DNA of 64,000 nucleotides from a virus: positions 38,746 through 102,745 of IMG/VR virus record IMGVR_UViG_3300009181_000042; one strand, 5' to 3'. The notes beneath the pieces were generated by a model that did no database searches, had not been told where the DNA came from, and was given only the letters and a program-made list of their open reading frames with translations. The position numbers and the translations under genes are program-made. Positions 2,735 to 35,645 of the stretch are shown here, one piece after another (position 1 is the stretch's first letter; each line of letters opens with the position of its first letter).

Positions 2735-3316
2735 TCAATTCTTGTACCAGTACCAACCATCATTGGATACCATGCGTACTTGCTTGCTGGGTATGCCGTG
2801 TGCTTTTGCCCAGCTGGTAACAGCAAAGTTCACAGAAAACAGATTGGCATCATGTCCTGCAATAAGACCACCTGATCTGATCTTTGGCACGTAGCTGTCT
2901 AGATCTGCCAGCACTTGCTTCATGCTGTGGCCACCATCTATGAAAACGAAATCATACGCATCGTCTTCAAGCTGTGCTGCTGCTTTGGTGCTGTCTGCTC
3001 GCAGGAAATTATAGCGAGACCCCATCAGCGGCATGTTGGCTTGCAATATGGCAAAATTAGCTTCTTGCTCGACTTTGGGTATTGGACGATCCCAGTCCAC
3101 ATATGGTGCATAGTGATCTATGCCTGTCAGGCTAACGATGTTGTGGCATTCGTTGAGCATGAACCAACTGTTCATACCTAGCCCAACTCCGATCTCTAAT
3201 CCCACCGCAGGATACGGGAGACGCATGAGCTCGTCAATTATGCCTCGGCTGGCCTGCTGCTTGTAAATGCGCGGCCATTCTGGGCTATCAAATAGTGTTG
3301 TAAGTGTCTGGTTCAC
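2735..3316 (-). CDS. class I SAM-dependent methyltransferase (Methyltransf_24-like)
   Basis: LEIGVGLG, DFVFIDGGHS, GGLIAGHD. Confidence 0.85.
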   Translation of the reverse strand: MNQTLTTLFDSPEWPRIYKQQASRGIIDELMRLPYPAVGLEIGVGLGMNSWFMLNECHNIVSLTGIDHYAPYVDWDRPIPKVEQEANFAILQANMPLMGSRYNFLRADSTKAAAQLEDDAYDFVFIDGGHSMKQVLADLDSYVPKIRSGGLIAGHDANLFSVNFAVTSWAKAHGIPSKQVRMVSNDGWYWYKN

Positions 3317-3323
3317 GTATTAT

Positions 3324-3845
3324 TTATGGCTTTTGCCACAGCCAGCTCTTAACTCCGTGCGATTCCCATAAGCTGCCTTCAAACAATTGGTACCCTGGCA
3401 CTAATTCGTTGCAGGCCTGTTCTATGCCATTGATGTTATCTGGTGCCCAATCGTGCCCACCTATGTAACCGCCTGATTTTATCTTAGGCAACCAAGCATT
3501 GATATCAGCTGTTACTGATTCGTAAGAGTGATCAGCATCGATGTATACAAAATCCAAGCTTGAATTGTCGTACTCTGTAGCAGCCTGCACGCTTCCTGTG
3601 ATCACAGGTTTGAAATGATCTTTTAACACTGTTAGACTAGCAGAGAAGCTATCGCCTATGTCAACTAGGTCAAGCTTTATCTGCTTGCCGCTATTGACTA
3701 TCTCTACCAGCATGTATGCTGCACTGCAACCACAATACACACCAACTTCAACAAAGTGTGCAGACTCTGGTGCAGAGTCCACCATCTTGGTATAAAGTTC
3801 TTGGAAATCAAACCAGCCCGGAATGTCTTTATAAAAATGATCCAT
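3324..3845 (-). CDS. class I SAM-dependent methyltransferase (Methyltransf_24-like)
   Basis: VEVGVYCG, DFVYIDADHSYE, GGYIGGHD. Start moved to ATG 3845 (MDHFYKD) to avoid overlapping the upstream gene. Confidence 0.85.
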   Translation of the reverse strand: MDHFYKDIPGWFDFQELYTKMVDSAPESAHFVEVGVYCGCSAAYMLVEIVNSGKQIKLDLVDIGDSFSASLTVLKDHFKPVITGSVQAATEYDNSSLDFVYIDADHSYESVTADINAWLPKIKSGGYIGGHDWAPDNINGIEQACNELVPGYQLFEGSLWESHGVKSWLWQKP

Positions 3846-3852
3846 GCAGTAT

Positions 3853-4446
3853 TTAACTGTGCTCAGTCTTGCCGTCATCTCTGCGAATACGACGCACGTT
3901 GCTAACAAATTCTGGATCTGTGGGTGCCATCTCGTTGAGTATGCTGTTGCAGACATCATTCAGCCAACGGTTGATGCACTCTTCGTCAGTACCTTGGTAA
4001 CCGTTGCCCCGCAGTGATTCTACGAATGCAGGGTTGTAGTCTAGCTCAAAGAAAGTCTTGCTAGGGTCAACTGGGTCCCAGCTGATCTTGGGCATAGCCA
4101 TGTATGGCTCGTTAGCAATATCAGCACGCTTGCGCTCGTGTTCGTGTGCAGATATGCGATTGTGCTTGAGATCAACTTCTAGCTTGGCCAATGCCAGTGC
4201 TTGCTCGGCAGTATTGTCCATCTCTGCTAGCCGGGTGTCGTGATCATACGCTGTCATCTTGCCGTATGCTAGATCAATGGCCATTATGCGCTTGGTAAAC
4301 TCTGGTGAGTCGATGCCGTGCTCGATCTTGGCTACTTCGACATCTAGTTCATATCCTGACAGATAGTATTCTGCTTCGGCTAGCTGTCGGCTCTTGCCTT
4401 TTAAACCCCAGCTGCCTGGTAACCAGTTAAATGGTATCTTGCTCAT
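3853..4446 (-). CDS. hypothetical phage protein (197 aa)
   Basis: Long ORF abutting the queE stop. Confidence 0.8.
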   Translation of the reverse strand: MSKIPFNWLPGSWGLKGKSRQLAEAEYYLSGYELDVEVAKIEHGIDSPEFTKRIMAIDLAYGKMTAYDHDTRLAEMDNTAEQALALAKLEVDLKHNRISAHEHERKRADIANEPYMAMPKISWDPVDPSKTFFELDYNPAFVESLRGNGYQGTDEECINRWLNDVCNSILNEMAPTDPEFVSNVRRIRRDDGKTEHS

Positions 4447-4447: not shown

Positions 4448-5359
4448 TTATCTTCCTATCACATTGCTAAAGATCCAGCAGTGTATACGAGCTGCTACGT
4501 TGTATCCGCGTTTGAGCGCTTCTTCAGTAACCCACATCTGCACATCTTCTTGTTCTTGTCTAGTAGCGCCAACTGGCATAACCCACACTGGCCAGTCTAC
4601 CCCAACTGCACGGAATGCATCAACTGCACGTTCTAACTCATCCCAGGTCCGTGTATCTTTGTCCAACACAAACTTCAGCTGCCCTGCGTCGCTAAGCAAC
4701 CTGTACTGCTTGATGATGTCTGGTTTGATAGCTGCATCCCAGCTCTCGCCGCTGGTACCCAGCTTAGGGCTGCAACTCCAAAACACTTCACCGTCATACA
4801 TACCGCGGTTGGCAAAGTACTCTTCGAAATTCTTTCGCAGTGCTTGTGTGCCGTTGGTCTCGATAGTAATGTGTCGCGGGCTGTCGTTTTGCATGCGTAA
4901 CGTGTTCATGATATCTACGATACCAGTTTGGCTCATCATTGGCTCGCCGCCAGTGAATGCCAAGTGCACGTCTTGTCCACTGCGAGGATGTTTAAAGCTA
5001 TGGCCCTGCAATCTTGAACGAAAATCTGCACAGATCTCTTCTGCTGTGCTCTGATGTGCCAAGTGTCCGTACTTGGTGCTCCAGCTGTAGCTGCTATCAC
5101 ATCCTGTGGTCCAAACTGGCAGTTCGTCCATGCTTTTGATGCCTGCTGCCGCTGGATCGTAGTCTTTGTAATGTAGTTCGTATGTGCTTGTATCTCTTGG
5201 ATCTTTTTGTCCAAAACCGTCACAATTGAAGTTACATCCCCAGAAGCGTATCCACACTGTTGGATGCCCAGCATACTTGCCTTCTCCCTGGATGGTAGGA
5301 GTTGGACCGTCATTGCCACCAAATACTTCGCTGTATCGGTATTTCTTAACTGAGCTCAT
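4448..5359 (-). CDS. queE: 7-carboxy-7-deazaguanine synthase (radical SAM)
   Basis: YSEVF..TIQGEG, IRFWGCNFNC...GCDSSYSW, FTGGEPM, TIETNGT, SCSPKL, LKFV. Clustered with queD and folE. Confidence 0.9.
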   Translation of the reverse strand: MSSVKKYRYSEVFGGNDGPTPTIQGEGKYAGHPTVWIRFWGCNFNCDGFGQKDPRDTSTYELHYKDYDPAAAGIKSMDELPVWTTGCDSSYSWSTKYGHLAHQSTAEEICADFRSRLQGHSFKHPRSGQDVHLAFTGGEPMMSQTGIVDIMNTLRMQNDSPRHITIETNGTQALRKNFEEYFANRGMYDGEVFWSCSPKLGTSGESWDAAIKPDIIKQYRLLSDAGQLKFVLDKDTRTWDELERAVDAFRAVGVDWPVWVMPVGATRQEQEDVQMWVTEEALKRGYNVAARIHCWIFSNVIGR

Positions 5360-5537
5360 TGTTTGCCTCATCAGTGCTGTGTTCGCTGTGTGTTGAATCA
5401 AAGATGTCATCAACAGTGTCATGCCATCCCATTTGGTCTAATGCCGAATCTATCCGCACAACCTGCTTGACAGGTTTACCATCCTTCATCACTGTTATGG
5501 TCCAAGTACCGTCTGGGTTTTGAAATGATTCAGGCAT
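5346..5537 (-). CDS. small hypothetical protein
   Basis: Fills the gap in the operon with short overlaps on both sides. Confidence 0.6.
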   Translation of the reverse strand: MPESFQNPDGTWTITVMKDGKPVKQVVRIDSALDQMGWHDTVDDIFDSTHSEHSTDEANNELS

Positions 5538-8069: not shown

Positions 8070-8452
8070 TTTTTAACCCCCACCTTTCCGTTATATAACT
8101 CAGCCCAGGCTCTAGCAGGCATCATGCTAATATCGTCAACCCACACATCTTTGTAGGTAGAGCCTCTTGTGCTAGTTGCATTTTTTGGATAGGCTCTTTT
8201 CATTTCATTCTCAAGTACCTGCTCGCGCAGCCTATCCATATCTCTGCGTAACATCTGCATTTCTCTATCTGTGCGTTGCTGCGAGTTGCGCATCTGTGTA
8301 AATGGCCCATCTACAGCATCTTCCTGATTGCGTGTGAGTGCGACCAGCATTACCAAGCTGCTCAGCGCATTTTGTACACGCGGATCGTCGCTTGTGATCG
8401 CCGCGTCAAATACTTTGATCATTTGCTCAAAATCAATCATGATATTCTCCAT
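8066..8452 (-). CDS. hypothetical protein with coiled-coil segment
   Basis: ATG 8452 overlaps the queD stop (TAATG). Confidence 0.7.
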   Translation of the reverse strand: MENIMIDFEQMIKVFDAAITSDDPRVQNALSSLVMLVALTRNQEDAVDGPFTQMRNSQQRTDREMQMLRRDMDRLREQVLENEMKRAYPKNATSTRGSTYKDVWVDDISMMPARAWAELYNGKVGVKK

Positions 8453-8946
8453 TAGATTAGTTCCTCGTTCCATTCGCGATGGCCCTCGCGGAACGCCATG
8501 TTGGACTGCGTCTCACGCACTTCTACACGATAGCACCACAAGCGTTCTGATTCACCGGGTCCCCACAGGTCTGGGATGTAAACGCCGTTGACATACTTGT
8601 ATAACATGTCAGCCAAGCCTTCGCAACCAAGCCGAGGCAGTATGGTCAGCTTGGCCATCTTCTTGCTCTGCAGCAGCTTGAATGTTTCTAGTTCTGGATC
8701 GTCTTCAGCTACCAACAGTGTGTGATCAAACTGATCTTCCAACGTCTTCTTGAGCTCCTTGAGACCGCCGTAGTCAGCTGCCCAGTTGCGAACATCTAGA
8801 TTATCTGTCCCAAAGTAAAACTTCATGCTAAATGAATAACCGTGTATGGTGTTGCAGTGGCTGTCTGCTCGCCATTGCCTATAAGCACAGGGGAATGCAT
8901 CGTGATATTCCTTGGTGCTGGTGTACTTGTATGCTACTGGTGTCAT
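8452..8946 (-). CDS. queD: 6-carboxy-5,6,7,8-tetrahydropterin synthase
   Basis: SHCNTIHGY (CxxxHG), DYGGLK, FDHTLL, VEVRET; AGGAG SD. Confidence 0.9.
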   Translation of the reverse strand: MTPVAYKYTSTKEYHDAFPCAYRQWRADSHCNTIHGYSFSMKFYFGTDNLDVRNWAADYGGLKELKKTLEDQFDHTLLVAEDDPELETFKLLQSKKMAKLTILPRLGCEGLADMLYKYVNGVYIPDLWGPGESERLWCYRVEVRETQSNMAFREGHREWNEELI

Positions 8947-8953: not shown

Positions 8954-9020
8954 CTCCTATGTTAATAATACCATAGGCTGCAGAATTTGTATAGCGGGAA
9001 TGAAGCCCAAAGCGCCGCTT
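8954..9020 (-). ncRNA. candidate cis-regulatory structured leader (riboswitch-like) of queD
   Basis: Stem AGCGG/CCGCU; loop UGGGCU can pair with downstream AGCCUA; a competing CCUAUG/CAUAGG hairpin covers the SD. Confidence 0.45.
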
Positions 9021-9027
9021 GTTGTAC

Positions 9028-9714
9028 TTATCGCGGTGCAAATTCCTGTTGCAGCTTGATGTTGTCAAAGAACTCTTTCTTGGTGCTTTGATCTTCATAA
9101 AACACGCCCTTGAGCACAGTGGTCTGTGTCAAACTGCTGTGTGCCATGATGCCTCGGTTCTCGCAGCATCCATGGGTTGCTTGGATATACACACCCACAT
9201 TCACAGTGCCTGTGGCTGTGATGATCTCTCGAGCAATGTCATTGCACAGTTCTTCTTGCAGTGTGCCACGACGAGCGCACCACTGTGCGATACGAGTGTA
9301 CTTGCTGAGACCAATCAGTTTGGTTGCTGCGATGATACCAATATATGCAACACCTGACACTGGTTGGTGATGATGGCTGCACATGCTGGTCAATTCGCTG
9401 CGCACGACCAACATGCCCTCGTAACGATCGTCACCGTCATTGGGAAAGCTGGTCGCTTTGGGGCGTGCGCTATAGCGCCCAGCCATCAGCTCTTTGACAT
9501 ACATCTTGGCAAGCCTGCGACCGGTATCGTTGCTGTTGGGATCGTTCTCACGATCGATCACCAAGCTGTCTAGCACAGCATCAAATCGATCATGCAGTTC
9601 ATTGATCAGCTCATCTATCTCACCGTCTTTGATGTATTCGCTGATGTTGTCGTTGGCATTGAATCTAGCGCCAGCTTTTAGGATACGCTGACGAATCTTG
9701 TCTGAAGTGCTCAC
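9028..9714 (-). CDS. folE: GTP cyclohydrolase I
   Basis: SMCSHHHQP, IGLSKYTRI, LQEEL, HGCCENRG. Confidence 0.95.
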   Translation of the reverse strand: MSTSDKIRQRILKAGARFNANDNISEYIKDGEIDELINELHDRFDAVLDSLVIDRENDPNSNDTGRRLAKMYVKELMAGRYSARPKATSFPNDGDDRYEGMLVVRSELTSMCSHHHQPVSGVAYIGIIAATKLIGLSKYTRIAQWCARRGTLQEELCNDIAREIITATGTVNVGVYIQATHGCCENRGIMAHSSLTQTTVLKGVFYEDQSTKKEFFDNIKLQQEFAPR

Positions 9715-9720
9715 TGTGGT

Positions 9721-9746
9721 CTCCGATGTTAACGCAGTGGATTGCG
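9721..9746 (-). ncRNA. candidate mini-pseudoknot leader of folE
   Basis: CGCA-AUCCAC-UGCG-UUAACAUC-GGAG; loop UCC is complementary to GGA of the SD. Confidence 0.35.
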
Positions 9747-9785
9747 AATTGTTTCTATTGTACTTTATTTAGGCGGTAACTGCAA

Positions 9786-10406
9786 CTAGTCCTCAGCCCA
9801 ATCGTTATAACTTTCCCACGCTCGGCCATCGCGAAAATATTCTTGTACTGCTGGTACGAGTGTATCATTATGGCTTGCAGGGGTGTAGCTGTAGCTGCCA
9901 TATGCAGAATACCCAGACGGGACTGCTCCGTATATGGGATGCGTACCACCAACTGCGCCAACTGCGCCAACTGCGCCAACTGCTCCGGTTGCGCCAATTG
10001 TGTTGGATGATGTCTGAGGAACTGCTATACCAGTGCTGACTGCGATGATTCCGGTATTGGTGAGAATTGACGATGTGGGAGGAAACATCCCTGAGAGTTG
10101 ACCAAGGTCTACCGTAAGAGTATCTTCTTCCAGATCGTTCCAAAGATCAGTAACTGTGTCATCTCCGATTGAAAGATTAGCCATCACAGGATCACTGCCG
10201 TCGTCAATCATCTTGGTCATGATCTTGCGCATGCTTTGAAGCTCGTGGGTCATACGAGCCCGGCTTTCCTGCAGTGCTTCGCGCTGCTTGACATACGCTG
10301 CACGCACTGCTTCTTGGTCTTGCTCATTTTGCACAAGCTTGGACTTCAACCGGCGATAGCGATTGAAGTAGCTGTCCATGGCTTCCAAGCGTTCTGTGTC
10401 GTTCAT
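9786..10406 (-). CDS. hypothetical protein, N-terminal coiled coil and (GAV)n low-complexity tail
   Basis: ATGA-coupled start at 10406; 9-bp tandem repeat near 9949-9985. Confidence 0.7.
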   Translation of the reverse strand: MNDTERLEAMDSYFNRYRRLKSKLVQNEQDQEAVRAAYVKQREALQESRARMTHELQSMRKIMTKMIDDGSDPVMANLSIGDDTVTDLWNDLEEDTLTVDLGQLSGMFPPTSSILTNTGIIAVSTGIAVPQTSSNTIGATGAVGAVGAVGAVGGTHPIYGAVPSGYSAYGSYSYTPASHNDTLVPAVQEYFRDGRAWESYNDWAED

Positions 10407-10927
10407 GCCTGCTCGTCCTGCCCATACGCTGACCATGGTGTAAATGTCTTGCGATCCATGAGATCATGCAGGCTGTGTACCCACACGCCCGGATTGCTAG
10501 CTTTGAACCCAGTGTCGTCAATCTTCACGCAGGTATTGTAGTTTCCCAATCCGGCATAGGGTATCTTCACGCTGATCTGCGGAATGAACTGTGCATGGCT
10601 CATGGCAACCATTTCACAGGCACCTAGCCATTGTGCGATATCAAAATCCAGTGTGACCCAATACCCATGATCTAGCAGTGCAGTGCAAAGCTTGTCCCAG
10701 CGATCCCAACCAGCTGCATCGTCATATGCAGTCACGTCAAAGCTCTGATTGGCACCCAGATAGATGTGCCTACAGACCTTGCGTTCAGCAACACTTACGA
10801 TGTGCTCAACTGGGTGTACACCCACCACAAACAGCGTGTGTGCACCGCGTTGCGGAGTGTTTTCTACTTCCATGCCGGTGAAGAACACCACGTCGTTTTT
10901 TATACCGTCAACATAATCTCGTTCCAT
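10403..10927 (-). CDS. hypothetical protein translationally coupled to the dpdA-like gene
   Basis: TGATG overlap; alternating beta/alpha pattern (TLFVVG, HIYLGANQSF, WVTLDFD). Confidence 0.8.
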   Translation of the reverse strand: MERDYVDGIKNDVVFFTGMEVENTPQRGAHTLFVVGVHPVEHIVSVAERKVCRHIYLGANQSFDVTAYDDAAGWDRWDKLCTALLDHGYWVTLDFDIAQWLGACEMVAMSHAQFIPQISVKIPYAGLGNYNTCVKIDDTGFKASNPGVWVHSLHDLMDRKTFTPWSAYGQDEQA

Positions 10928-12588
10928 CACATGTCCTCTACTAACATTGAAACATCATTGTTGGCATCCATGCCAGTTATACTTTGTAACATCTTCTCAT
11001 GCTTCATGATTAGATCCATAGGACGTTCGCTAGTGAATATATCATCAACTAGGTCCTTGAATTCTAATAGGTCGCGTGTGAGATATTCTTTGGCTTCGCT
11101 AATAGGCAAGTCCTGACAACGGTTAGCTGCTTGTATAGCGTTGACATGCAGTTCTGTGTTGTGATTCATTGCCAACAAGTAGCTGAAACCATCCATGCTG
11201 CTGGGCCACTTTTCTTGATACTGTCCCAGCGAGTTAGCAAACTGATTGGTGCCAAGATCAAACAGCCCGCCATTCTCATGGCTGTGGATTTGGTATTCCT
11301 TGTATGCTTTGGTCCACTTGAATGGATCGTTAGCTTTGCCTTCTGGCGTGCTTGCCCAGTATCCGCAGTCGATCTCTTTTTTAGTAAATGCAATCTTCTT
11401 GCTTTCGAGATCATCATATCCGCGCACACAGATGTCGCCTACACTCACTCGATCGCCAATACGGCTGCGCACCGGAACCATCTTCTTAGGTAAGTTAGCA
11501 GCCATCCAATCGTTTAGTAGTTGCGGATTGTTCTTGAGCTCTTTACGATCTACAATAGGCCCGCCTTTGAAGCTGACATTCTCTGAACTAAGCTCGTGTC
11601 CATAATACATTTGTCCTTTGGCAGTCATCACAAACGGGCTTGCTGCGTCAAAGCTGATGGTTAGCTGAGGGTCAACATGCTTGCGCAGTGCACGTTGCAC
11701 TGATGTTAGTGCGCAGCCTGCTTTGATCTTGCCGTTACCCAGATAGTGCAACCACTCTCGACCTGCTAGATAGTTTTCATCGCGCATGATGATCAAGCGA
11801 CGCAGGTTGATGGTAAAGTTTGATGCCTGCACGTTAGAGAACGCCCAGCTTTCAAACGGCAAGTCTTTGGTTGCATCCCACCATACATCGCCTTCTTCCA
11901 TGTTACGACCCTGCAACACGTTGAGGAACTTGGTAGCACCCTCTTTGCGATGCTTGATGAAGAAGTGGTGATTGTCCAAGCTACCAGTCAAGCAGTCATT
12001 AAAGCTCTTGAGACTGGGATGCAAGCTGGCACCAGTGACTGGATCTAATCCAAACTTAACCAGCGCATACGTGGGCCAATCCAACACCATGCTGTAGTCT
12101 GCTGTGGCTTCTAGCCAGCGCAGCAGCTTCATGCGCACATCGTCTTTGTCGCTTTGATGTTCTTCTGCAGTTTGCTTGGCTTTAGCATGCCATGGATACT
12201 TGAGCACGCCTGTGGCTGCTTGGAACCCACCGCTGTCGCCCACCATCACAGTGTTAGCACGATTGCGCTGCTGTACCATGCGTTCTTGTACCCAGCTCTC
12301 AGCTGGGTCAAGTATAGCATGTCCTGCCGAATACAGTGCCACGGGATAGTAAAACAAGCTATTAGCAGGATCAAGAAAGTCCAGGTCTTTGAGGCCCTGT
12401 GGCAATCCTGCTGGCATCTTGTCACGCATGTTATACTGTACCATGCTTACGATCTTAGCATAGATCATGCTAATGCTCGGCAAGAACAGTGCATAATCGC
12501 TTTGTGTCGCTGCCATGTTGCGCACTTCTGGATTGAACTTGATGTGATCAGTATCGAAACTGAACCGCTTGAAATCTGGATTTATCAT
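10927..12588 (-). CDS. dpdA: TGT-fold transglycosylase, DpdA-like (inserts a 7-deazaguanine derivative into DNA)
   Basis: TGT motifs in order: GDSGGFQ, MVLDWP, NVLQG, LHYLGNG, ISFDAAS (catalytic Asp). Adjacent to folE/queD/queE. The subfamily cannot be assigned by eye. Confidence 0.8.
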   Translation of the reverse strand: MINPDFKRFSFDTDHIKFNPEVRNMAATQSDYALFLPSISMIYAKIVSMVQYNMRDKMPAGLPQGLKDLDFLDPANSLFYYPVALYSAGHAILDPAESWVQERMVQQRNRANTVMVGDSGGFQAATGVLKYPWHAKAKQTAEEHQSDKDDVRMKLLRWLEATADYSMVLDWPTYALVKFGLDPVTGASLHPSLKSFNDCLTGSLDNHHFFIKHRKEGATKFLNVLQGRNMEEGDVWWDATKDLPFESWAFSNVQASNFTINLRRLIIMRDENYLAGREWLHYLGNGKIKAGCALTSVQRALRKHVDPQLTISFDAASPFVMTAKGQMYYGHELSSENVSFKGGPIVDRKELKNNPQLLNDWMAANLPKKMVPVRSRIGDRVSVGDICVRGYDDLESKKIAFTKKEIDCGYWASTPEGKANDPFKWTKAYKEYQIHSHENGGLFDLGTNQFANSLGQYQEKWPSSMDGFSYLLAMNHNTELHVNAIQAANRCQDLPISEAKEYLTRDLLEFKDLVDDIFTSERPMDLIMKHEKMLQSITGMDANNDVSMLVEDM

Positions 12589-12593
12589 ATAAC

Positions 12594-12622
12594 AGTATGG
12601 CCTATGGCTGTGATCTTGTCAA
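12594..12622 (-). promoter_or_regulatory. sigma70-like promoter giving a probably leaderless dpdA mRNA
   Basis: TTGACA-N17-CATACT-N5-ATG, no SD. Confidence 0.6.
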
Positions 12623-13713
12623 GCATGAGTCAGCGCTTGTTTCAATGCGGTTGCGTTAAAGAACTTGTTACCAACCTGCTCGGCTTCGGCAAGTGCATGT
12701 GCTGCTAGGCTATTGCGCGACATCGCACTGCGAATGTGTGCAACAATCTTGTCTTTGTTAGCTTGATAGCTGTCCCAGTTCATGGTCCATTCGCTTGGAT
12801 AGCATTCCGACCACATCTCAGTGTAGCTCAGGCGATCTGGTACCATTGGATACGTGCCAACCAGCGCAGCTTCATACATGCTGATACCCAGTGTTTCTTG
12901 CAAGTTAGCACTGAATGCGATCTTGCTTTCGGCCAAGTGCTTGTGATACTCATTCTTGCTGAGTTTCTGATCCTGTGCTATGAACCACTCATACTCTGGC
13001 ATCGTCGCTGCTAGATCCTTGAATATCTCCAGTTGCTTCTCTGGTGCCAAGCGATGCGGGAATATGATCTTGTCCTGCTTGGCTGTGCTAGCAAATGGTG
13101 CCAGCAATGGTGCCATGTATTCCATGGGCCACCCAGTCAGCTTGAGACGATTGATCTCACTGTCCAAACACCCAGTGATGAACTCTTCGGTTTCGTCTTC
13201 AGAAAATAGAGTATCTACACCCAGTAGTTCGCGCAAGAACAAGTTGCTGTGGAATCGTGTGGCAAACCAATTGGTATCATAGGTATAGAACATGCTGGAT
13301 TCTGCATTGCGTACCCAAGGCTTATCGCCAACTAGCCGTCCCAAGAAGTCTTGCGGGTCATAGCTGCCAGCATGCCAAAGACCGTGTATCTCGATCTTTT
13401 TGCCAAGCAATTCAGCCATGTAGCGCAGCTGTATCACAGTAGGATTCCACGCATCAGTGTAGAGGAATTTGTCGCCGTCGTGTATGAGATTCTCACGAAA
13501 CAGCTGTGCGATGCTCATCAGCTGGCTGCTCTTGTAGATGTTTGTAGCACCAAAATCTAAGAACGCACCCGGTGTTGGTGTTGCAGGAACATTGTCCCCT
13601 TCGATGATGGCTACATCCGAGCCAACTGCGTCTAGCAGTTCGGGAATGTGTTCATACCACTGGCGTGTGTAGCGAGTGTCAATTGGTTCGATAGGGACGA
13701 TGTATATGGTCAT
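12619..13713 (-). CDS. GT-B glycosyltransferase (GT4-like)
   Basis: FPHRLAPEKQ and ETLGISMYE (Ex7E) motifs; ATGA-coupled start (MTIYIVPIEP). Confidence 0.8.
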   Translation of the reverse strand: MTIYIVPIEPIDTRYTRQWYEHIPELLDAVGSDVAIIEGDNVPATPTPGAFLDFGATNIYKSSQLMSIAQLFRENLIHDGDKFLYTDAWNPTVIQLRYMAELLGKKIEIHGLWHAGSYDPQDFLGRLVGDKPWVRNAESSMFYTYDTNWFATRFHSNLFLRELLGVDTLFSEDETEEFITGCLDSEINRLKLTGWPMEYMAPLLAPFASTAKQDKIIFPHRLAPEKQLEIFKDLAATMPEYEWFIAQDQKLSKNEYHKHLAESKIAFSANLQETLGISMYEAALVGTYPMVPDRLSYTEMWSECYPSEWTMNWDSYQANKDKIVAHIRSAMSRNSLAAHALAEAEQVGNKFFNATALKQALTHA

Positions 13714-14267
13714 TTTGGCTCCAGTGTCACGTTTAACTGTTCTAGTATCTCTAGGTAATGCTGCTCGCCAGCCGACACTTGCTCTAGCCAAGCTTGTCCG
13801 GCAGCAGCATCTGCATTATCGCTTATGTACTTGTAAACTTCAACTTCAATGTCTGCTGCTATAGCTGCTCGGACCACGCTGTATGCTTCCATCTCTACGA
13901 TATCGCAAGGTGCACGCAGCTTGTGTGGTTCAGTGACAAACAAATCACCACTGGCACAGATCTTGCCGTCTCCGCCTAGGTCGATGAAGCTAAGCTCATC
14001 TGCGAGATTCTCACAGGGTTGCAGTCCGATTGGTGTGTGGTTCATGTCGTGTTGGAAGAACTTGCTGCAGCGATAGATACCACTGCTCACTGTTATGCCG
14101 CCCGCAGTACCGAGATTGATCACACGTATGGGATCATGCAAGCTGATCAACCGCGACGTGTTGACGGCGCTGGCAACTTTGCCAACGCCGATAGCAAACA
14201 CGTTATCGTAGTTCCTTATGAGATTAGGCGCTTCGCTGGGCAGTGCCAGCAGTACCAGATCTCTCAT
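13710..14267 (-). CDS. MTA/SAH nucleosidase-like protein (PNP_UDP_1 family)
   Basis: ALPSE, GVGKVASA, VINLGTAGG, SGDLFV, VEMEAY, KYISDNAD. Confidence 0.85.
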   Translation of the reverse strand: MRDLVLLALPSEAPNLIRNYDNVFAIGVGKVASAVNTSRLISLHDPIRVINLGTAGGITVSSGIYRCSKFFQHDMNHTPIGLQPCENLADELSFIDLGGDGKICASGDLFVTEPHKLRAPCDIVEMEAYSVVRAAIAADIEVEVYKYISDNADAAAGQAWLEQVSAGEQHYLEILEQLNVTLEPK

Positions 14268-14650
14268 CAGACTTTCCAGCGCAGAAATGCACCGTTTTCG
14301 TCATCTTCGCTGACTTGGATCCAAACTTCTCGGCCTGGATAGCGTGCGGCAATCTGCTCGTACAGTGCTTCGCTGATCATCTCGCAGCTGCGATAGTTCA
14401 GTTCTAGTGTCTTTTCTGCATACAGCTTTTCTAGCCAACGCTTGAATTGGATGAACTCGATGTCGCGATCATTGTGTGTGACTGAGATCCATACTTGGAA
14501 GTGGAAGATGTGCCTGTGTGGATAGCCTAGGAAACTGACATCATACTCGTCGCCAGTAGCCAGCGCAGGATCAGTCAGCGCTGCTGGGTACTTGTGGATG
14601 CCTTCTTTATGGAATTTAACCCATATCATGCGCGAAGTTGGATCTGTCAT
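14267..14650 (-). CDS. T-fold QueD paralogue, DpdL-like (putative CDG decarboxylase)
   Basis: LGYPHRHIF matches the LxxxHRHxF signature I recall for DpdL; SCEMISE and VSEDDENG fit a QueD-like T-fold. GGAG SD. Confidence 0.7.
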   Translation of the reverse strand: MTDPTSRMIWVKFHKEGIHKYPAALTDPALATGDEYDVSFLGYPHRHIFHFQVWISVTHNDRDIEFIQFKRWLEKLYAEKTLELNYRSCEMISEALYEQIAARYPGREVWIQVSEDDENGAFLRWKV

Positions 14651-14673
14651 TATCATTCTCCATTTGATGAACA

Positions 14674-14702
14674 ATAATAACACAGTCTGGCGATCTAATC
14701 AA
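14674..14702 (-). promoter_or_regulatory. sigma70-like promoter heading the deazaguanine operon
   Basis: TTGATT-N17-TATTAT with TGn. Confidence 0.5.
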
Positions 14703-14706
14703 GTGG

Positions 14707-17700
14707 TCAAGTGTCTATAGCTGTTCTCACGCTCTTGATTATCATAGTAGCACTGGTATTGGGAGTGAACAGCAGTTCAACCATGTTGCTGACTATGTCG
14801 GCTTGAAACAGTCCCAAGCTTTGGTTGGTATAGATGTCGCCGTATTCAGTCAAGTACACATCGGTGCCATCATGTATCAGCATGACCTGTGTGGCTTGGT
14901 AATAGCTATTGGTTGTATCAGTTACCTGTACCATGTAATGCGCAGTCCTAAATGTTGCTGCAGGCCACGCATCAACAACTTGCTGGAACGTGCTGGTACT
15001 AGTATGCGCATTACCGTCAATTACCCAGGTGTTGCCGCTCACATACCCATTGCTCTGTAGCACCTGTACATTAGCAAATCCGCGTATGTTCAAGCTAGCG
15101 CCATTGACAGCGCCGTTGCTTTCAATTCGGCTACCAGTGATCGTGCTGTTAGCTTGTATCGTAGTATTGCTAGTGACAGTGTTGGCAAGCAGGCTAGTGC
15201 CGGCTTGTATCGTAGTATTGCTAGTGACAGTGTTAGCAAGCAAGCTAGTGCCAGCTTGTATTGTGGTATTGCTGGTGACAGTGTTAGCAAACAGATCGCT
15301 GCTAGCTTGTATGGTAGCGTTGCTGAACAAGCTTGCTGCAGTGATAGCATTGCTGGCTATAACATAGCTAAACTGCGCACTGTTGTTAACAACAATATTG
15401 CCTCCGACAAAGAGGTTGCCTATGACGCCTACGCCACCGGCTACAGTCAGTGCACCAGTGGTGCTACTGGTTGCAGTGTTGCTACCAAATATGTTGATGT
15501 TGCCAGTGAAGTTGCTGAGTTGTCCGCCAACATTGATGTTGCCATCTGTGCCTATACCGCCTAGGGATACTACGCCGCCGCTGTTAGTATCTGTGCTGAT
15601 GCTTTGTGCGTTTCCAAGCCAGATGTTGCCAAACGTTGCACCGCCATATATGATACCTGGGTACAGCGTGATCTCGTTGCTGACATTGAGTTCACCCGGT
15701 GCTACGTTGGTCACATATATCAATCGACCAGTGCTGTTGTCATAGCCCATGAACGCATGATTGAATCCAGCAGTTTCGCCGTTGTACGCCGGATTGTGGT
15801 AGTAATCCATCAACACGCCGCGATCATACCCGTCGTCAACAACCAGCGGTGTTCCACCTGTGCCAATACCAAGTTCGATCACAGGATCAACGATGGTCAA
15901 GCTCTGCACGTTGATAACAGTGGTGTTACCAGACAGCGTTAGGTTACCAGTTACCGTTAAGTTACCGGATATCGTGCTGTCGCCTACAACATCAATACCG
16001 CCGCTGGTGATATAGCTGCGAGTGTTAGCAGTGAAGTTGTTGAATACTGCAGCACCATTGCTCTGTATGGTGGTATTGCTGGTCAAGCTGTCTACCACTA
16101 CAGCACCACTTGTATTCAGTGTAGCACCGAATATGTTGGTATTGCTGATCAGTTCATTTACGGTAGCAGTGCCGCCACTCTGTATGGTACCATTGCTGCT
16201 GATGCTAGCAAATGTTGCTGCACCGCTGCTGGTTATGGTATCTGTGCTGATCACCGTGTTCACAGTGAGGCTGCTTGCTTGTGCTGCACCGGTGCTGTTA
16301 AATGTAACAGTAGTGATGTTGGTATTGCTGATCAGATCATTGACAGTGGCAATGCCTGCACTTTGTATGGTGCCATTGCTGGTCAACGAGCCGGTTACTA
16401 TCTCGCCTGTAGCAGTGATAGCGCTAAATGTAGCAAGCCCGCCGACATCAAATACGCCGCCAACGTTTAGGTTGCCACCGATACCCACCCCACCTGCTAC
16501 AGTGAGTGCACCAGTAGCAGTTGATATGCTAGGTGTGGTCTGGCCAATCACCAATCCTTGTCCGTAAACCAATCGAGCCGCTTCGTTGCCAGGACTATCG
16601 CCACCTTGAGTAAACACGATGTCGTTGTTGGCCAGCGTGCCCAGTATGAGATTACCGCCACCTGTTACTGTGTTGCCGGCTACGTACAAGTATCCGTCGT
16701 TAGCACGGTCTACTAAACCCGGTGCGAACGTGCTGCTGTTGATACCCATGTTGATATAGGTATCTGTGCTATTACCATTGTCAGCTGTGACCACGATATC
16801 GCCGCTGGCAGCAGTTCCTGGATTGATGTTCTGCAGGTTAAGCTGGGCAAAATCATCAACGTTAGCACTGAGCTGTAACACAGTGTTAGGTTGATAAACA
16901 TATCCAGAGATTATGCCACCATACAGTGCACCGAATCCATAGGTGTCGCCATAGAACACACCGCTATTACCAGTTATCTGGTTAACGTTGCCAGTAAGCG
17001 TGATGTTACCAGTGATGTTTAGATTACCAACTATGCCAACGCCGCCGTATACAGTCAGTGCTCCGTTCAACGGCGACGTGCTTTGCACGTTGCTGTTGAT
17101 GAACACGCTGCTTACGCCCAGGGTTGTGTTGCCGGTGTGCCAAATTAAGCTACCACTGTTGCCGCTAAACGTGTTGGCTGCGCCAGCAAACTGTATGGTA
17201 CCCTGTGTACCATAGCTTGGCGTGTAGAATGCAGCAGTTTCTTGGAACGTACCGTCTGGGAACAGTATACCGCTGGTAGTGGACGCAGTGTTGCCAATAT
17301 GTATGTTGCCGTAGATATCAAGTGGGTATTGGACAGTGGCAGTGCCAATACCCACGTTAACGTTTGCAATCAGCTGTCGTGCATTTATGTAAGTGCCAGC
17401 AGTCACGCTGGTATTGCTTACGATCACGTTGAATTCAGTGATGTTGCTAACGATTAGATTGCTAGCAGTTATAGTAGCATTGGCAAAGATGTCCTGCGCT
17501 ATTACTGTGTTGCGTATGTTCAGGCTTTGACCGTTGATCGCACCATTGCTTTCAAAGCTGCTACCAGTGATAGTGCCATTAGCCTGTATCGTAACATTGC
17601 TGGTTATTGTTCTAGCTACCAGGTCGTTGGCAACAGTAACATCGTTAGCAGTTATAGCTGCGTTAACTACCAATGCATTCAGAGTAGCAGTCCCGATACC

Positions 17701-20700
17701 CTGTATGGTGGTATTGGCAACAAAGCTGTTGACTTGTGCAGCACCTGTGCTGTTGATGGTAGCTGTGGTTATGTTGGTGTTGCTAACCAAGCTACCGACT
17801 ATAGCACCACCAGCGCCAACATTTAAGCTTGCAGTGCTAGTAGCTGTGTTTACATTTAAGCTATTGGTGTAACTAACACCAGCAATATTAAGGTTAGCGC
17901 TGTAGATGTTGGCATTGCTGATCAGCTGATTGACAGTCGCAGTGCCTGCGCTTTGTATAGAAGTGTTGCTGGTGATAGACCCGGCTACTAGGTTGCCTGT
18001 GACATTGACATTGCTTACAGTGATGGCGGTGTTGACCACTAGTGCATTTACAGTGGTAGTGCCTGCACTTTGTATAGTTGTATTGCTGTCTATGCCATTG
18101 AACACAGCAGCGCCTGTGCTGTTGATAGTAGCTGTGGTTATGTTGTTGTTGCTGACCAAGCTATCAACAATAGCACCACCTGCACCTACATTTAAGCTGT
18201 TAGTGCTGGTAGCAGCATTCACGTTTAAACTGTTGACCTGTGCCAGTCCAGCAATATTGAGATTAGCACCGTAGATGTTGGCATTGCTGATCAAGCTACC
18301 AACAACTGCGCCACCTGCACCAACATTCAGTGATGCAGTGCTAGTGGCGGTGTTTACGTTCAGGCTGTTGACTTGCGTCTCACCGGCTATGTTTAAATTA
18401 GCGCCGTAGATATTGGCATTGCTGATCAGCTGATTGACAGTAGCCAGTCCTGCACTTTGTATGATGCCGTTGCTGTAGACATTGCCCTGCCAAGCAGTGC
18501 CGCTGATGTTGAGATTGGCACCTGTGACGTTGGCATTGGCCAATAGCGAATTTACCGTAACAGCACCAGCGGCCTGTATAGTAGTGTTGCTGTTAATGCT
18601 GTCAAACACTGCAGCGCCAGTGCTGTTGATGCTAGCAGTGGTTATGTTGTTGTTGCTGATCAAACTATTGACTGTAGCCAGCCCATTCACGTTAACAGTG
18701 TCACCGTAGATGTTGTTATTAGCTACTAGCGAATTAACAGTAGTAACACCTGCGCTTTGTATAGTGGTGTTGCTGGTAATTGCCCCAGCAACCAAGTTGC
18801 CTGTGACGCTGATGTTGCTGACGATTATAGCTGTGTTAACTACCAGTGCGTTTAAAGTAGCAGTGCCTGCACTTTGTATCGTAGTGTTGCTGTCTATGCT
18901 GGCAAACACAGCTTTACCGCTACTGCCATAGGTTGCACTATAGATGTTAGTGTTGCTGACGATGTCTTGTCCGGTGATCAGCGTAGTTGCCTGCACATTA
19001 GGCGTGATCACAGCAATATTACCAACCAGTATGTTACCAGTCATGTTATTCAGCGCTGTGATACCAGCTGATGTAATACTGGTATTGGCAGCTATCAGCA
19101 GTGCGCTGATCTGGTTAGTAGCACTTATATTAGTGCTGCTAACTTCGTTGTTTGCATGCACAGCGCCGCCGCTTATCAGACCAACTGCACTGATGGCTGC
19201 ATTAGAATTCAATTGGTTAGCTAAGAGATCTTGACCAAATCTACCAGCACCCGTAGTGGCTATTTGTCCGGTGGCGTTAACATTGCCACCGATACCAACG
19301 CCACCTGTAACTACCAGGGCACCAGTGCTGCTGTTGATGCTTACTGTAGAATTGCTGAGATATAGCTCGCCAAACTGTGCAGCCCCATATACAAAGCCAG
19401 ATACGCTCTCAAACGGGTTAAAAACATTGGTAACACCTGGTTGCACGTTGTTTAGATATACGAACCTACCTGTGCTGTTTTGCCAGCCCATGAATGCATG
19501 GTTGTCTTCAGTCACATAGTAGTGCATGATTATGCCACGGTCGTAACCGTCATTGCTGGTCAGCGGCGGGTTATTAGCGCTGTCAGATCCTACTTCTATG
19601 GTTGGTCCCAACACGCTAATAGTGTTGGTATTAAATATGGTTGTGTTACCAATTACAATGAGGTTGCCGTTGATGCGTACATTGCCGTCAAGCAGCGTGT
19701 CGCCTAGCACATTGAGATTGCCACCAATACCAACACCGCCTGTGACCACCAATGCACCGCTGCTGGTGCTGTAGCTTTCGGTGTTGTTGGTCACGGTTGC
19801 CAAGCCGCTAACCGTGAGATTGGCAGTGGTCGTAGACACATTAGCCGTGATAGTATTGCCGCTGATACCGTTAAATGCATTGATACCCAGCGCAGTGACA
19901 CTGGTATTGCTGTTTACAGTCTGGAATAGTGCAGTGCCTGCGCTTTGTATGGTGGTGTTGCTGGTAATGGTCTGCACTATAGCGTTTGTGATCACGTTCA
20001 ACGTGCTGGTAACAACAGCAGTATTAACCTGCAGGCTGCTTACGAGAGCGAGATCGCTGGTCTTGAGAGTGACACCTTCAACAAATCCGTTGCTGCGAAA
20101 GTCGCTACCGCTGATTAAACTGCCTGCACTTATGGTTGTGTTACTGACCACAGTCCTAGCAGTAACCTGCGTGTTGGCCTGAACGAACGTGTTGCTAGTG
20201 AGACTGCCAACTACTGCACCACCATCACCAACTGTTAGCGATGCAGTGCTGATATCTGCGTTTACATTTAAGCTATTGATGTAGCCACGCCCGGCTATGT
20301 TGAGATTGGCACCGTAGATGTTGGCATTGCTGATCAGTGCATTTACCGATGCTGTATCTGTGCTTTGCAGATTAGTTGCAACAACGTTGGTATTGCTGTT
20401 TAAGCTGTTGACCTGCGCAGCACCTGTGCTGTTTATACTAGCAGTGGTTATGTTGTTGTTACTGACCAAGCTACCGACTATAGCACCACCAGCACCTACA
20501 TTGAGACTAGCAGTGCTGGTAGCGGTGTTTACATTCAAGCTATTGATCTGTGCTAGGCCAGCTATGTTGAGATTGGCACCGTAGATGTTGGCATTGCTGA
20601 TCAGAGAATTAACTGTGGCAGTATCAGCACTCTGTATAGTCGTGTTGCTGGTTATCGACCCGGCTACTAGGTTGCCTGTGACATTGACATTGCTTACAGT

Positions 20701-21867
20701 GATGGCTGTGTTGACCACTAGTGCATTTACAGTGGTAGTGCCTGCACTCTGTATGGTGGTGTTGCTGTCTATGCCATTGAACACAGCAGCGCCTGTGCTG
20801 TTGATAGTAGCAGTGGTTATGTTGTTGTTGCTGACCAAGCTGCCAACTATGGCGCCGCCAGCACCCACATTCAGTGATGCAGTGCTGGTAGCTGTGTTTA
20901 CATTCAGGCTGTTGACCTGAGTAGCACCGGTTGAGTTCAGCGTAGCAGTGGTTATGTTGTTGTTGCTGACCAAGCTATCAACTATAGCGCCACCGGCGCC
21001 AACGTTCAGCGATGCAGTGCTAGTAGCTGTGTTTACATTTAGGCTGTGTACTTGAGCTAGGTCGGCTATGTTTAAGTTAGCGCCATAGATATTGGCGTTA
21101 CTGATCAGCTGATTGACTGTAGTTAATCCTGCGCTTTGTATAGTTGTGTTGCTGCTTATGCTGTTGCCGAGTATGAACGTACCGGCCTGCACAAACGTGT
21201 TACTGATTACGCTGTTAACTACAAGATCTTGCGCTATTGCTAAGTTACTGAATGTAACAGTACCTCTGACAAACAAGTTGCCGTTTACGTCGAGATCGGT
21301 ACCTATGTTACCCGATCCAGCAATTACCAAACTGTTTCCAGTAAACACATTTGCTGTGATCAGATCGGCGCCGGTGATACTACCGTTAATACCTGTTATC
21401 GAGATGTTGCTTGCAGCGAGCAAACCAAGAACATTGATGTTGCTGGTGTTCAATGCTAGATTAACGTTGTCCCAATAGAAATTAGCATAATCACCGCTGA
21501 AGCTATTACCGCTACCTGCGAATTGGACAGTACCAGGATACCCATAGCTGGTTCCTGCCCCAGTACCAAAGGCAGCAGTGGTCATGAACGTACCGTCAGG
21601 GAACTTTATACCACTGGTTGTTGTGGCAGTGTTGGTGATCTTGATGTTGCCCCAGACATCTATCGGATACTGTGGGCCGTTAGTACCTATACCAACAGTT
21701 GTAAACGTACCTTGTCCGGCTGCGATATTAGCATTACTGCCATTAGGTAATAAAAAGCTGATGGTACCGTCAGCATTGGTAACACGGGGCCCTTGTTTGC
21801 CCAGGCTGAGATCACCTGATACGCCACTAAGCTTAAAGTCGAACGTTGGGTTATTTGGCAGCGACAT
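14707..21867 (-). CDS. giant repetitive virion fibre/structural protein (2386 aa)
   Basis: N/T/S/G/A/V/I-rich 17-aa repeats, STSTGALxVxGGVGIGGN modules, C-terminal FRTAHYMVQV...HDG...TEYG domain. TAAATA upstream. Confidence 0.8.
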   Translation of the reverse strand: MSLPNNPTFDFKLSGVSGDLSLGKQGPRVTNADGTISFLLPNGSNANIAAGQGTFTTVGIGTNGPQYPIDVWGNIKITNTATTTSGIKFPDGTFMTTAAFGTGAGTSYGYPGTVQFAGSGNSFSGDYANFYWDNVNLALNTSNINVLGLLAASNISITGINGSITGADLITANVFTGNSLVIAGSGNIGTDLDVNGNLFVRGTVTFSNLAIAQDLVVNSVISNTFVQAGTFILGNSISSNTTIQSAGLTTVNQLISNANIYGANLNIADLAQVHSLNVNTATSTASLNVGAGGAIVDSLVSNNNITTATLNSTGATQVNSLNVNTATSTASLNVGAGGAIVGSLVSNNNITTATINSTGAAVFNGIDSNTTIQSAGTTTVNALVVNTAITVSNVNVTGNLVAGSITSNTTIQSADTATVNSLISNANIYGANLNIAGLAQINSLNVNTATSTASLNVGAGGAIVGSLVSNNNITTASINSTGAAQVNSLNSNTNVVATNLQSTDTASVNALISNANIYGANLNIAGRGYINSLNVNADISTASLTVGDGGAVVGSLTSNTFVQANTQVTARTVVSNTTISAGSLISGSDFRSNGFVEGVTLKTSDLALVSSLQVNTAVVTSTLNVITNAIVQTITSNTTIQSAGTALFQTVNSNTSVTALGINAFNGISGNTITANVSTTTANLTVSGLATVTNNTESYSTSSGALVVTGGVGIGGNLNVLGDTLLDGNVRINGNLIVIGNTTIFNTNTISVLGPTIEVGSDSANNPPLTSNDGYDRGIIMHYYVTEDNHAFMGWQNSTGRFVYLNNVQPGVTNVFNPFESVSGFVYGAAQFGELYLSNSTVSINSSTGALVVTGGVGIGGNVNATGQIATTGAGRFGQDLLANQLNSNAAISAVGLISGGAVHANNEVSSTNISATNQISALLIAANTSITSAGITALNNMTGNILVGNIAVITPNVQATTLITGQDIVSNTNIYSATYGSSGKAVFASIDSNTTIQSAGTATLNALVVNTAIIVSNISVTGNLVAGAITSNTTIQSAGVTTVNSLVANNNIYGDTVNVNGLATVNSLISNNNITTASINSTGAAVFDSINSNTTIQAAGAVTVNSLLANANVTGANLNISGTAWQGNVYSNGIIQSAGLATVNQLISNANIYGANLNIAGETQVNSLNVNTATSTASLNVGAGGAVVGSLISNANIYGANLNIAGLAQVNSLNVNAATSTNSLNVGAGGAIVDSLVSNNNITTATINSTGAAVFNGIDSNTTIQSAGTTTVNALVVNTAITVSNVNVTGNLVAGSITSNTSIQSAGTATVNQLISNANIYSANLNIAGVSYTNSLNVNTATSTASLNVGAGGAIVGSLVSNTNITTATINSTGAAQVNSFVANTTIQGIGTATLNALVVNAAITANDVTVANDLVARTITSNVTIQANGTITGSSFESNGAINGQSLNIRNTVIAQDIFANATITASNLIVSNITEFNVIVSNTSVTAGTYINARQLIANVNVGIGTATVQYPLDIYGNIHIGNTASTTSGILFPDGTFQETAAFYTPSYGTQGTIQFAGAANTFSGNSGSLIWHTGNTTLGVSSVFINSNVQSTSPLNGALTVYGGVGIVGNLNITGNITLTGNVNQITGNSGVFYGDTYGFGALYGGIISGYVYQPNTVLQLSANVDDFAQLNLQNINPGTAASGDIVVTADNGNSTDTYINMGINSSTFAPGLVDRANDGYLYVAGNTVTGGGNLILGTLANNDIVFTQGGDSPGNEAARLVYGQGLVIGQTTPSISTATGALTVAGGVGIGGNLNVGGVFDVGGLATFSAITATGEIVTGSLTSNGTIQSAGIATVNDLISNTNITTVTFNSTGAAQASSLTVNTVISTDTITSSGAATFASISSNGTIQSGGTATVNELISNTNIFGATLNTSGAVVVDSLTSNTTIQSNGAAVFNNFTANTRSYITSGGIDVVGDSTISGNLTVTGNLTLSGNTTVINVQSLTIVDPVIELGIGTGGTPLVVDDGYDRGVLMDYYHNPAYNGETAGFNHAFMGYDNSTGRLIYVTNVAPGELNVSNEITLYPGIIYGGATFGNIWLGNAQSISTDTNSGGVVSLGGIGTDGNINVGGQLSNFTGNINIFGSNTATSSTTGALTVAGGVGVIGNLFVGGNIVVNNSAQFSYVIASNAITAASLFSNATIQASSDLFANTVTSNTTIQAGTSLLANTVTSNTTIQAGTSLLANTVTSNTTIQANSTITGSRIESNGAVNGASLNIRGFANVQVLQSNGYVSGNTWVIDGNAHTSTSTFQQVVDAWPAATFRTAHYMVQVTDTTNSYYQATQVMLIHDGTDVYLTEYGDIYTNQSLGLFQADIVSNMVELLFTPNTSATMIIKSVRTAIDT
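15152..15304. repeat. 3 x 51-bp coding tandem repeat (17 aa)
   Basis: gcttgtatcgtagtattgctagtgacagtgtt... recurs with period 51. Confidence 0.85.
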
Positions 21868-29772: not shown

Positions 29773-29777
29773 GCTCA

Positions 29778-32803: not shown

Positions 32804-32819
32804 AACGCTGCGAGGACTG

Positions 32820-34018: not shown

Positions 34019-34025
34019 GGTACCA

Positions 34026-35644: not shown

Positions 35645-35645
35645 T

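Follow-up and report, generated by a model that had tools for sequence, protein, structure and literature searches.

The 64-kb stretch of DNA analysed here (the window) encodes on its minus strand a glycosyltransferase (GT) that lies among the genes of a putative 7-deazaguanine DNA-modification pathway. We consider it probable that this protein is an active, retaining enzyme of the GT4 type and a fixed member of a form of the pathway that works without QueC, and that the product is a glycosylated 7-deazaguanine. The window forms the final 64 kb of a linear virus record in IMG/VR that is 102.7 kb long. CheckV puts the completeness of that record at about 20%, and the window is therefore a piece of the genome of a huge phage. 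A megablast search with positions 9000-15000 returned no match among GenBank phages. The genes concerned are the following.

12619-13713, minus strand: GT4-type GT-B glycosyltransferase of 364 amino acids (aa), assigned from its model fold and motifs
10927-12588, minus strand: DpdA-like transglycosylase with the fold of tRNA-guanine transglycosylases (TGTs), 553 aa, assigned from its model fold and motifs
14267-14650, minus strand: DpdL-like paralogue of QueD, 127 aa, from an ATG at 14650 (the longest open reading frame, ORF, starts with GTG at 14683)
13710-14267, minus strand: protein resembling 5'-methylthioadenosine/S-adenosylhomocysteine (MTA/SAH) nucleosidases, 185 aa, Pfam PNP_UDP_1
10403-10927, minus strand: conserved 175-aa protein, overlapping the end of the DpdA-like gene
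9028-9714, minus strand: GTP cyclohydrolase I (FolE), Pfam 6.6e-37, with a TAAATA 52 nt upstream (9766-9771)
8452-8946, minus strand: QueD (6-carboxytetrahydropterin, CPH4, synthase) of the 6-pyruvoyltetrahydropterin synthase (PTPS) family, Pfam PF01242 5.9e-17
4448-5422, minus strand: QueE-like radical S-adenosylmethionine (SAM) enzyme (7-carboxy-7-deazaguanine, CDG, synthase), Pfam Fer4_12 and Radical_SAM

In the pathway we propose, FolE, QueD and QueE would make CDG from GTP, and the DpdL-like T-fold enzyme would remove the carboxyl group. The DpdA-like enzyme would swap guanine in the phage DNA for the deazaguanine base. The GT would add a sugar to the deazaguanine, either to the free base before insertion or to the base already inserted in DNA. 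Phage particles would then contain DNA with a glycosylated 7-deazaguanine, which would protect it from restriction. Our direct observations are the protein folds, the catalytic motifs, the order of the genes and the association of the GT with the DpdA-like gene in both phages and bacteria; any assignment of an acceptor atom, a sugar donor, a sequence of steps or DNA as the final target is inferred from them.

Structures were predicted for the GT and the DpdA-like protein, and alignments were built from their metagenomic relatives. Read from its ATG the GT has 364 aa; the 390-aa ORF that begins with TTG is an upstream extension. The AlphaFold model (mean predicted local distance difference test score, pLDDT, 88) has a complete GT-B fold of two Rossmann-like domains. 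Its best structural matches (Foldseek, VIA) are retaining GT4 and GT5 enzymes (Z 20-24, root-mean-square deviation, rmsd, 3.2-3.8 over about 300 residues), including sucrose-phosphate synthase (Z 24.3), BshA (22.4), GlgM, PimB' and glycogen synthase. An EX7E motif (E273-x7-E281), R221 and K226 are invariant in 36 close relatives. The same residues are invariant in an alignment of 38 phage and bacterial sequences that are 22-100% identical to the GT (phage homologues 22-47%, bacterial ones 35-46%). Judging from the motif rather than from a residue-level superposition, E273, E281, R221 and K226 would correspond to known GT4 residues. With its GT-B fold and invariant catalytic motifs, the protein looks like an active retaining nucleotide-sugar transferase.

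Neither the GT nor the DpdA-like sequence gave anything significant in searches of PDB, Pfam, PHROGs, NCBIfam and PADLOC. Weak matches to Glycos_transf_1 (PF00534) were found for 29 of the 36 GT relatives, the best at 1.7e-5. The GT was identified by its fold and these weak matches only, and the DpdA-like protein by its fold only. On this evidence the GT appears to be a divergent subfamily of the GT4 type. Longer, fused versions of the GT were looked for without success; this negative is weak evidence. A 530-aa transporter-GT fusion in one related locus (L098) was discarded as an artefact of ORF calling; its N-terminal part is not YhhQ-like.

The DpdL-like protein carries LGYPHRHIF, an instance of the DpdL signature LxxxHRHxF that replaces the CxxxHGH of QueD (PMC10516641). 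It matches phrog_17812 at 2e-30 and is 51-70% identical to the corresponding GT neighbours in phages ACP17, PA5oct and Phosso; there was no PTPS match in Pfam at E <= 0.01. We propose that it is a CDG decarboxylase.

The model of the DpdA-like protein (pLDDT 90) contains the TIM-barrel fold of TGTs, and all of its top 50 Foldseek matches in PDB are bacterial, archaeal or eukaryotic TGTs, with a probability of 1.00. The motifs GDSGGFQ (D118) and FDAASP (D314) are invariant in 39 sequences. We take these two aspartates to correspond to D102 and D280 of the Zymomonas mobilis TGT. The motifs align with VDSGGLQ and SYDS of a 424-aa TGT-like protein of ACP17; the profile relation between the two proteins is marginal (hhalign probability 31%, E 5e-4, 195 columns), and tblastn found no match to the DpdA-like protein in ACP17. 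No Pfam model (TGT, PF01702, included) and no NCBIfam model matched at E <= 0.01. The TGT zinc motif CxCxxC...H is not present, and the invariant C387, H476 and H481 could form an alternative metal site.

The QueE-like protein matches the NCBIfam QueE models at 6e-11, below their cut-offs, and is 34% identical to the annotated QueE of PA5oct. No QueC was found on the 102.7-kb contig. Homologues of the 175-aa protein occur in 72 of 80 IMG/VR loci with a GT and in ACP17. It had no match in Pfam, PHROGs, NCBIfam or PADLOC, a profile search of PDB gave chance matches only, and an Atlas features search found no family (scores <= 0.76).

The gene order DpdL-like, nucleosidase, GT, DpdA-like on the minus strand (10927-14650) and the translational coupling of the first three genes had been claimed in the original prediction, and the coordinates bear out both. 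The DpdL-like stop and the nucleosidase start overlap in TGATG and the nucleosidase stop and the GT start in ATGA; a gap of 30 nt separates the GT gene from the DpdA-like gene. The same prediction had set the linkage of GT homologues to dpdA and dpdL as a test beforehand. This linkage held, with full-length homologues found only beside deazaguanine genes.

The GT family is large, with at least 8000 relatives in the protein collection and at least 592 stretches in IMG/VR (592 of 600 candidates confirmed). We examined the neighbours in the best 80 IMG/VR loci, and in all 80 the GT adjoins deazaguanine genes: DpdL in 78, the DpdA-like gene in 70, FolE in 62 and QueE in 49. These neighbours are all encoded on the strand of the GT, and where one is missing the locus is cut off by a contig end. 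Gene order varies: close relatives of the window have the DpdA-like gene downstream of the GT, most others upstream. Methyltransf_24 genes occur in just three of the 80 loci and are accessory.

The reverse search started from the DpdA-like protein and also yielded 80 IMG/VR loci. A GT is present in 56 of them, and most of the others are truncated. Five loci with no detected GT have 7-10 kb of flanking sequence. One of these, from a divergent phage subclade (L155, 12914-16239), carries a redoxin, a divergent PF00534 GT and an NAD-dependent sugar epimerase/dehydratase of the GDP-mannose dehydratase type between DpdL and FolE, the GT standing at the usual place. We read the epimerase/dehydratase as direct genomic support for a nucleotide-sugar donor, and the layout suggests that different lineages use different sugars. 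In a further locus with DpdA and DpdL and no detectable GT (L141, 14354-17651), an uncharacterised 436-aa protein and two radical SAM genes stand in its place.

Six lineages of isolated phages carry the module, with GT identities from 47% down to 22% and differing gene orders. In PA5oct the order is DpdA-like, GT, DpdL and then QueE, and in Phosso it is DpdL, GT, FolE and then QueE. ACP17 has FolE, the homologue of the 175-aa protein, the TGT-like gene, GT, DpdL and QueE. In BUDD and BCSR5 the GT adjoins an annotated TGT, with QueE and FolE nearby. The cyanophage BUCT-ZZ01 has QueE, a xanthine-guanine phosphoribosyltransferase, QueD and FolE, followed by DpdL and the GT. The DpdL motif occurs near the GT in five of the six lineages (Phosso, ACP17, BUDD, BCSR5 and BUCT-ZZ01). 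Isolated-phage homologues that cover at least 77% of the GT all come from deazaguanine-carrying lineages, the loci inspected being those other than Xanthomonas phage X1. The annotated phosphoribosyltransferase of Synechococcus phage BUCT-ZZ01 (L088, 2084-2545), placed between QueE and QueD, hints that some lineages make a deazaguanine nucleotide.

GT homologues are found in bacteria too. Each of 20 alphaproteobacterial loci with one has a DpdA-like gene no more than about 3 kb away from it, and in 18 a Vut_1/YhhQ-type transporter stands next to the GT; this transporter family includes importers of queuosine precursors. Pterin enzymes are absent from these loci. Twelve share an operon of a histidine kinase, the transporter, the GT, the DpdA-like gene and an uncharacterised 588-aa protein (for example L103, 7723-14202, with the same layout in L104, L107-L114, L116 and L117). 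A LuxR-type response regulator lies beside the operon in 11 of the 12, a second GT of the GT1 family is often present, and integrases or resolvases lie near the islands. The 588-aa protein had no match in Pfam, PADLOC or PDB; no PADLOC model matched it, the histidine kinase of the islands, or the GT or DpdA-like protein of the window. From the linkage across phages and bacteria it follows that the invariant core is the GT plus the transglycosylase, to which phages add de novo synthesis of the base and bacteria an importer.

This pairing holds whichever way the base is supplied, and attachment of the sugar to a particular C7 side chain is therefore less likely. More probably the acceptor is some feature that 7-deazaguanines share, or the base after its incorporation into the polymer. 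DNA is the probable target because the virion DNA of PA5oct resists five restriction enzymes with G in their sites and is attacked by END nucleases, which sense hypermodified DNA (PMC12191111). The formation of 2'-deoxy-7-deazaguanosine (dDG) in E. coli from the DpdL and DpdA of ACP17 was attempted without success, and other enzymes were thought to be possibly needed (Cui et al., PMC10516641). Both the GT and the 175-aa protein are encoded among the DpdL and DpdA genes of ACP17, and the failed reconstitution fits a need for one or both of them.

Several points weigh against this reading. 7-Deazaguanine itself has no hydroxyl group, and the candidate attachment points are therefore N2 as in huimycin, O6, C7 or, with CDG as the base, its carboxyl group. 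In Cellulophaga phage phiST, DpdL and DpdA3 produce plain dDG (PMC10516641), and this phage did not appear among the tblastn matches of the GT; formation of dDG by itself therefore does not require the GT. Against PF00534 the GT of the window reaches 14.5 bits, short of the 26.4-bit cut-off. The GT is acidic (isoelectric point, pI, 5.0; N-terminal domain 4.5), which does not suggest direct binding to DNA; the DpdA-like protein is acidic as well (pI 6.0), and overall pI was dropped as a test of DNA binding for that reason. QueC or other enzymes could lie elsewhere, as the contig is about 20% of the genome. Most of the metagenomic loci are syntenic members of a single phage clade, and their counts are not independent.

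Among other explanations, the GT may glycosylate a small molecule that never reaches nucleic acid, either a pterin, in the manner of the cyanobacterial BGluT, or the deazaguanine in its free form, as with huimycin. The structure of tetrahydrobiopterin glucosyltransferase matches the GT well (5zer, Z 19.9, rmsd 3.1 over 281 residues; also 9v0l), the pathway passes through pterins, the acceptor domain of the GT is acidic, and huimycin is a free glycosylated base. We nevertheless regard this as unlikely: BGluT ranks below a dozen other GT4 enzymes, the invariant partner of the GT is a base-inserting transglycosylase and not FolE or QueD, and in the bacterial loci, which have no pterin enzymes, the GT is still accompanied by the DpdA-like gene and a base transporter. 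Slightly less likely still is a role of the two enzymes in RNA, with the GT and the TGT-like protein together making a queuosine-like base with a sugar in tRNA, as the animal enzymes QTMAN and QTGAL do. TGT-fold enzymes classically act on tRNA, glycosylated queuosine does occur there, and the bacterial islands combine a precursor transporter and a two-component regulator without a recognisable restriction gene. However, the characterised phage-encoded de novo deazaguanine pathways serve DNA (PMC10516641), and it is the DNA of PA5oct that is resistant at G-containing sites (PMC12191111). Moreover, PA5oct, Phosso, ACP17 and BUDD have the cluster within their replication module, adjoining the DNA polymerase gene, and a gene for a FEN nuclease follows it in the window (downstream, also on the minus strand) and in most related loci.

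The linkage could also be synteny without shared function, with the GT modifying another DNA base or a glycan of the host or virion. Hydroxymethyl-pyrimidines or host surfaces are frequent targets of phage GTs, the metagenomic sample is dominated by one clade, and sugar genes elsewhere in the window form an operon of their own (30.6-38.4 kb). We think this very improbable, as the adjacency survives changes in gene order, recurs in all six isolated lineages and persists after transfer to bacterial islands. In addition, GT-like phage matches outside dpd contexts are only partial and 23% identical (the PhiXhv-12 group, beside GlmS and a BshB-like deacetylase), and the contig carries no hydroxymethylase and a ThyA-family gene that passes the thymidylate synthase equivalog cut-offs. 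A non-catalytic GT that serves the DpdA-like enzyme, for example as a subunit presenting DNA or the base, would be in keeping with their constant pairing and with the need of bacterial DpdA for its partner DpdB. That role seems the least probable of all, given that the donor-binding and catalytic residues R221, K226, E273 and E281 are invariant down to 22% identity and that a nucleotide-sugar epimerase/dehydratase stands beside the divergent GT of L155.

The reading we prefer, glycosylation of a 7-deazaguanine destined for DNA, combines features of several known systems. The module shares with the dDG pathway of phiST (Cui et al. 2023, PMC10516641) the set FolE, QueD and QueE without QueC, the QueD paralogue with LxxxHRHxF and a distant TGT-fold transglycosylase, to which the window adds the conserved GT4-type GT and the conserved 175-aa protein. 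The transglycosylase is longer than the TGT-like protein of ACP17 (553 against 424 aa). The huimycin cluster and the dapiramicins likewise combine a GT encoded with FolE, QueD and QueE homologues and a sugar on 7-deazaguanine, and HuiG places N-acetylglucosamine on the 2-amino group of the base (PMC7439116). Huimycin differs in being a secondary metabolite made from preQ0, with QueC present and no transglycosylase, and remains a free molecule. QTMAN and QTGAL of animal tRNA add mannose or galactose to a 7-deazaguanine derivative in nucleic acid; QTMAN mannosylates queuosine already in tRNA. HuiG and QTMAN provide precedents for sugar addition to the free base and to the base within a polymer, respectively. 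Their acceptor is the cyclopentenediol hydroxyl of queuosine, whereas the module in the window allows no queuosine side chain and its likely target is DNA.

The original prediction had likened the GT to the T4 alpha- and beta-glucosyltransferases, which are also phage-encoded GT-B enzymes linked to DNA base modification. The fold and a recognisable match to T4 alpha-GT (1y6f, Z 17.1) support the comparison, but T4 alpha-GT ranks below about 30 GT4 and GT5 entries, and beta-GT is not listed; BshA, PimA and sucrose-phosphate synthase are nearer to the GT. The T4 enzymes act on hydroxymethylcytosine, while the partner of the window GT is a purine base-exchange enzyme. The likeness therefore appears to lie in function and not in family membership. 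The contig, about 20% of the genome, showed no pathway to hydroxymethyl-pyrimidines, and a T4-type model with such bases was rejected because no hydroxymethylase is encoded there; the sole ThyA-family member of the contig is a standard thymidylate synthase (340 bits, cut-off 108). The bacterial Dpd system (DpdA/B/C with the restriction genes DpdD-K) has a TGT-family enzyme, encoded on a mobile island, that puts 7-deazaguanine into DNA, and the enzyme of the alphaproteobacterial islands would do likewise. The partners differ and comprise here the GT, the YhhQ-like transporter, the histidine kinase and response regulator, and the 588-aa protein.

The nucleosidase between the DpdL-like and GT genes passes PNP_UDP_1 (4.5e-10, 39.8 bits, cut-off 25.1). 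Its PDB matches at E <= 1 are, in 33 of 34 cases, MTA/SAH nucleosidases (MTANs) or nucleosidases of the futalosine or aminofutalosine type, as is every match at E <= 0.2; the top ones are all MTANs, the best at 1.3e-7. Two NCBIfam models match below their cut-offs, PRK05634 over its full length (95.3 bits, cut-off 129) and PRK05584 (55.6, cut-off 169). The comparison shows that the gene is not a conserved member of the pathway. It is present in one of 160 related loci: none of the 80 GT loci has it (one of these with 86% GT identity), and of the 80 DpdA loci L121 alone does. As the main explanation, a part in the metabolism of deazaguanine nucleosides was rejected, since nearly all related loci lack the gene. 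MTANs have an established role in clearing 5'-deoxyadenosine and SAH, which inhibit radical SAM enzymes and methyltransferases. Given its likeness to MTANs, the nucleosidase is most likely a lineage-specific helper, rather than a step of the pathway, that would remove 5'-deoxyadenosine or SAH produced by the neighbouring enzymes of these classes. Further features of the region are listed below.

14674-14702, minus strand: sigma70-like promoter match, TTGATT, 17 nt, TG-n-TATTAT (extended -10), a consensus match only
3853-4446, minus strand: conserved 197-aa protein, which follows QueE in the clade of the window, PA5oct and Phosso
2735-3959, minus strand: two Methyltransf_24 SAM methyltransferases, Pfam about 1e-16 each

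The promoter match sits just past the stop codon of a 2386-aa ORF, with GGAG and then the ATG at 14650 downstream. A sigma70-type promoter had been claimed at this place. The consensus match at 14702-14674 agrees with it, but sigma70-like sites in the region are no commoner than in shuffled sequences (7 found, 7.1 expected), and a promoter ahead of the DpdL-like gene is therefore plausible rather than demonstrated. The best match of the region is another one (12594-12622, minus strand; TTGACA, 17 nt, CATACT, 10/12), which falls in the 30-nt gap between the GT and DpdA-like genes and overlaps the GT stop codon.

The operon at 30616 is indeed preceded by TAAATA, as predicted. The motif is not over-represented in the window overall (20 copies, 26.6 expected). 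Eight copies are intergenic, correctly oriented and 22-52 nt before a start codon, among them those of FolE and giant ORFs (9766, 21907, 25513, 29824, 30583, 41534, 46152 and 51869), and three more lie 4-6 nt before start codons (37793, 40662 and 41479). This placement looks like that of a T4-late-type promoter box. If TAAATA is such a promoter, FolE and the DpdL-GT unit would differ in transcription.

The sugar operon itself (30616-38412, plus strand) is led by a sugar nucleotidyltransferase. It encodes a protein resembling the RuBisCO large subunit (31661-32803, Pfam 5e-37), which is unusual for a phage sugar operon, as well as two DUF7796 proteins and a GT2 protein whose neighbour, like the GT2 protein, has tetratricopeptide repeats. 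Giant ORFs are found at 14707-21867 (2386 codons), 41567-45730 (1387), 46182-51860 (1892) and 51914-64000 (more than 4029), and a related locus has one of 3687 codons (L004, 3891-14954). The G+C content is 0.55-0.57 at 46-50 kb and about 0.48 elsewhere in the window. Two proteins on the minus strand (21933-24146 and 24160-25491) have weak matches to collagen triple-helix repeats, below the Pfam cut-off, and may be fibre proteins. A chaperone and maturation set on the same strand (26088-29778) consists of a ClpB-like AAA+ protein, a peptide deformylase and a DnaJ-like protein.

The eight 7-deazaguanine derivatives known from DNA carry no sugar, and our literature searches brought up neither a report of DNA with a glycosylated 7-deazaguanine nor any reference to this GT. 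The locus is a strong candidate for a new hypermodified guanine. More tentatively, we suggest that guanine is replaced by a sugar-bearing 7-deazaguanine in a very abundant clade of huge aquatic phages and in PA5oct-, ACP17-, BUDD- and Phosso-like phages, and that the GT and transglycosylase, with the precursor transporter, the two-component regulator and the 588-aa protein, form an undescribed DNA-modification island, possibly for defence, in Alphaproteobacteria. If so, the base would represent a new class of hypermodified purine outside the eight known derivatives, and it would be common in nature because the GT family is very large. It could explain what the modified G of the therapeutic candidate phage PA5oct is chemically, and why ACP17 DpdL and DpdA alone failed to give dDG. 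Cultivable phages with the module exist, which makes the question directly testable. A glycosylated deazaguanine would probably affect restriction, CRISPR, modification-sensing nucleases and sequencing chemistry.

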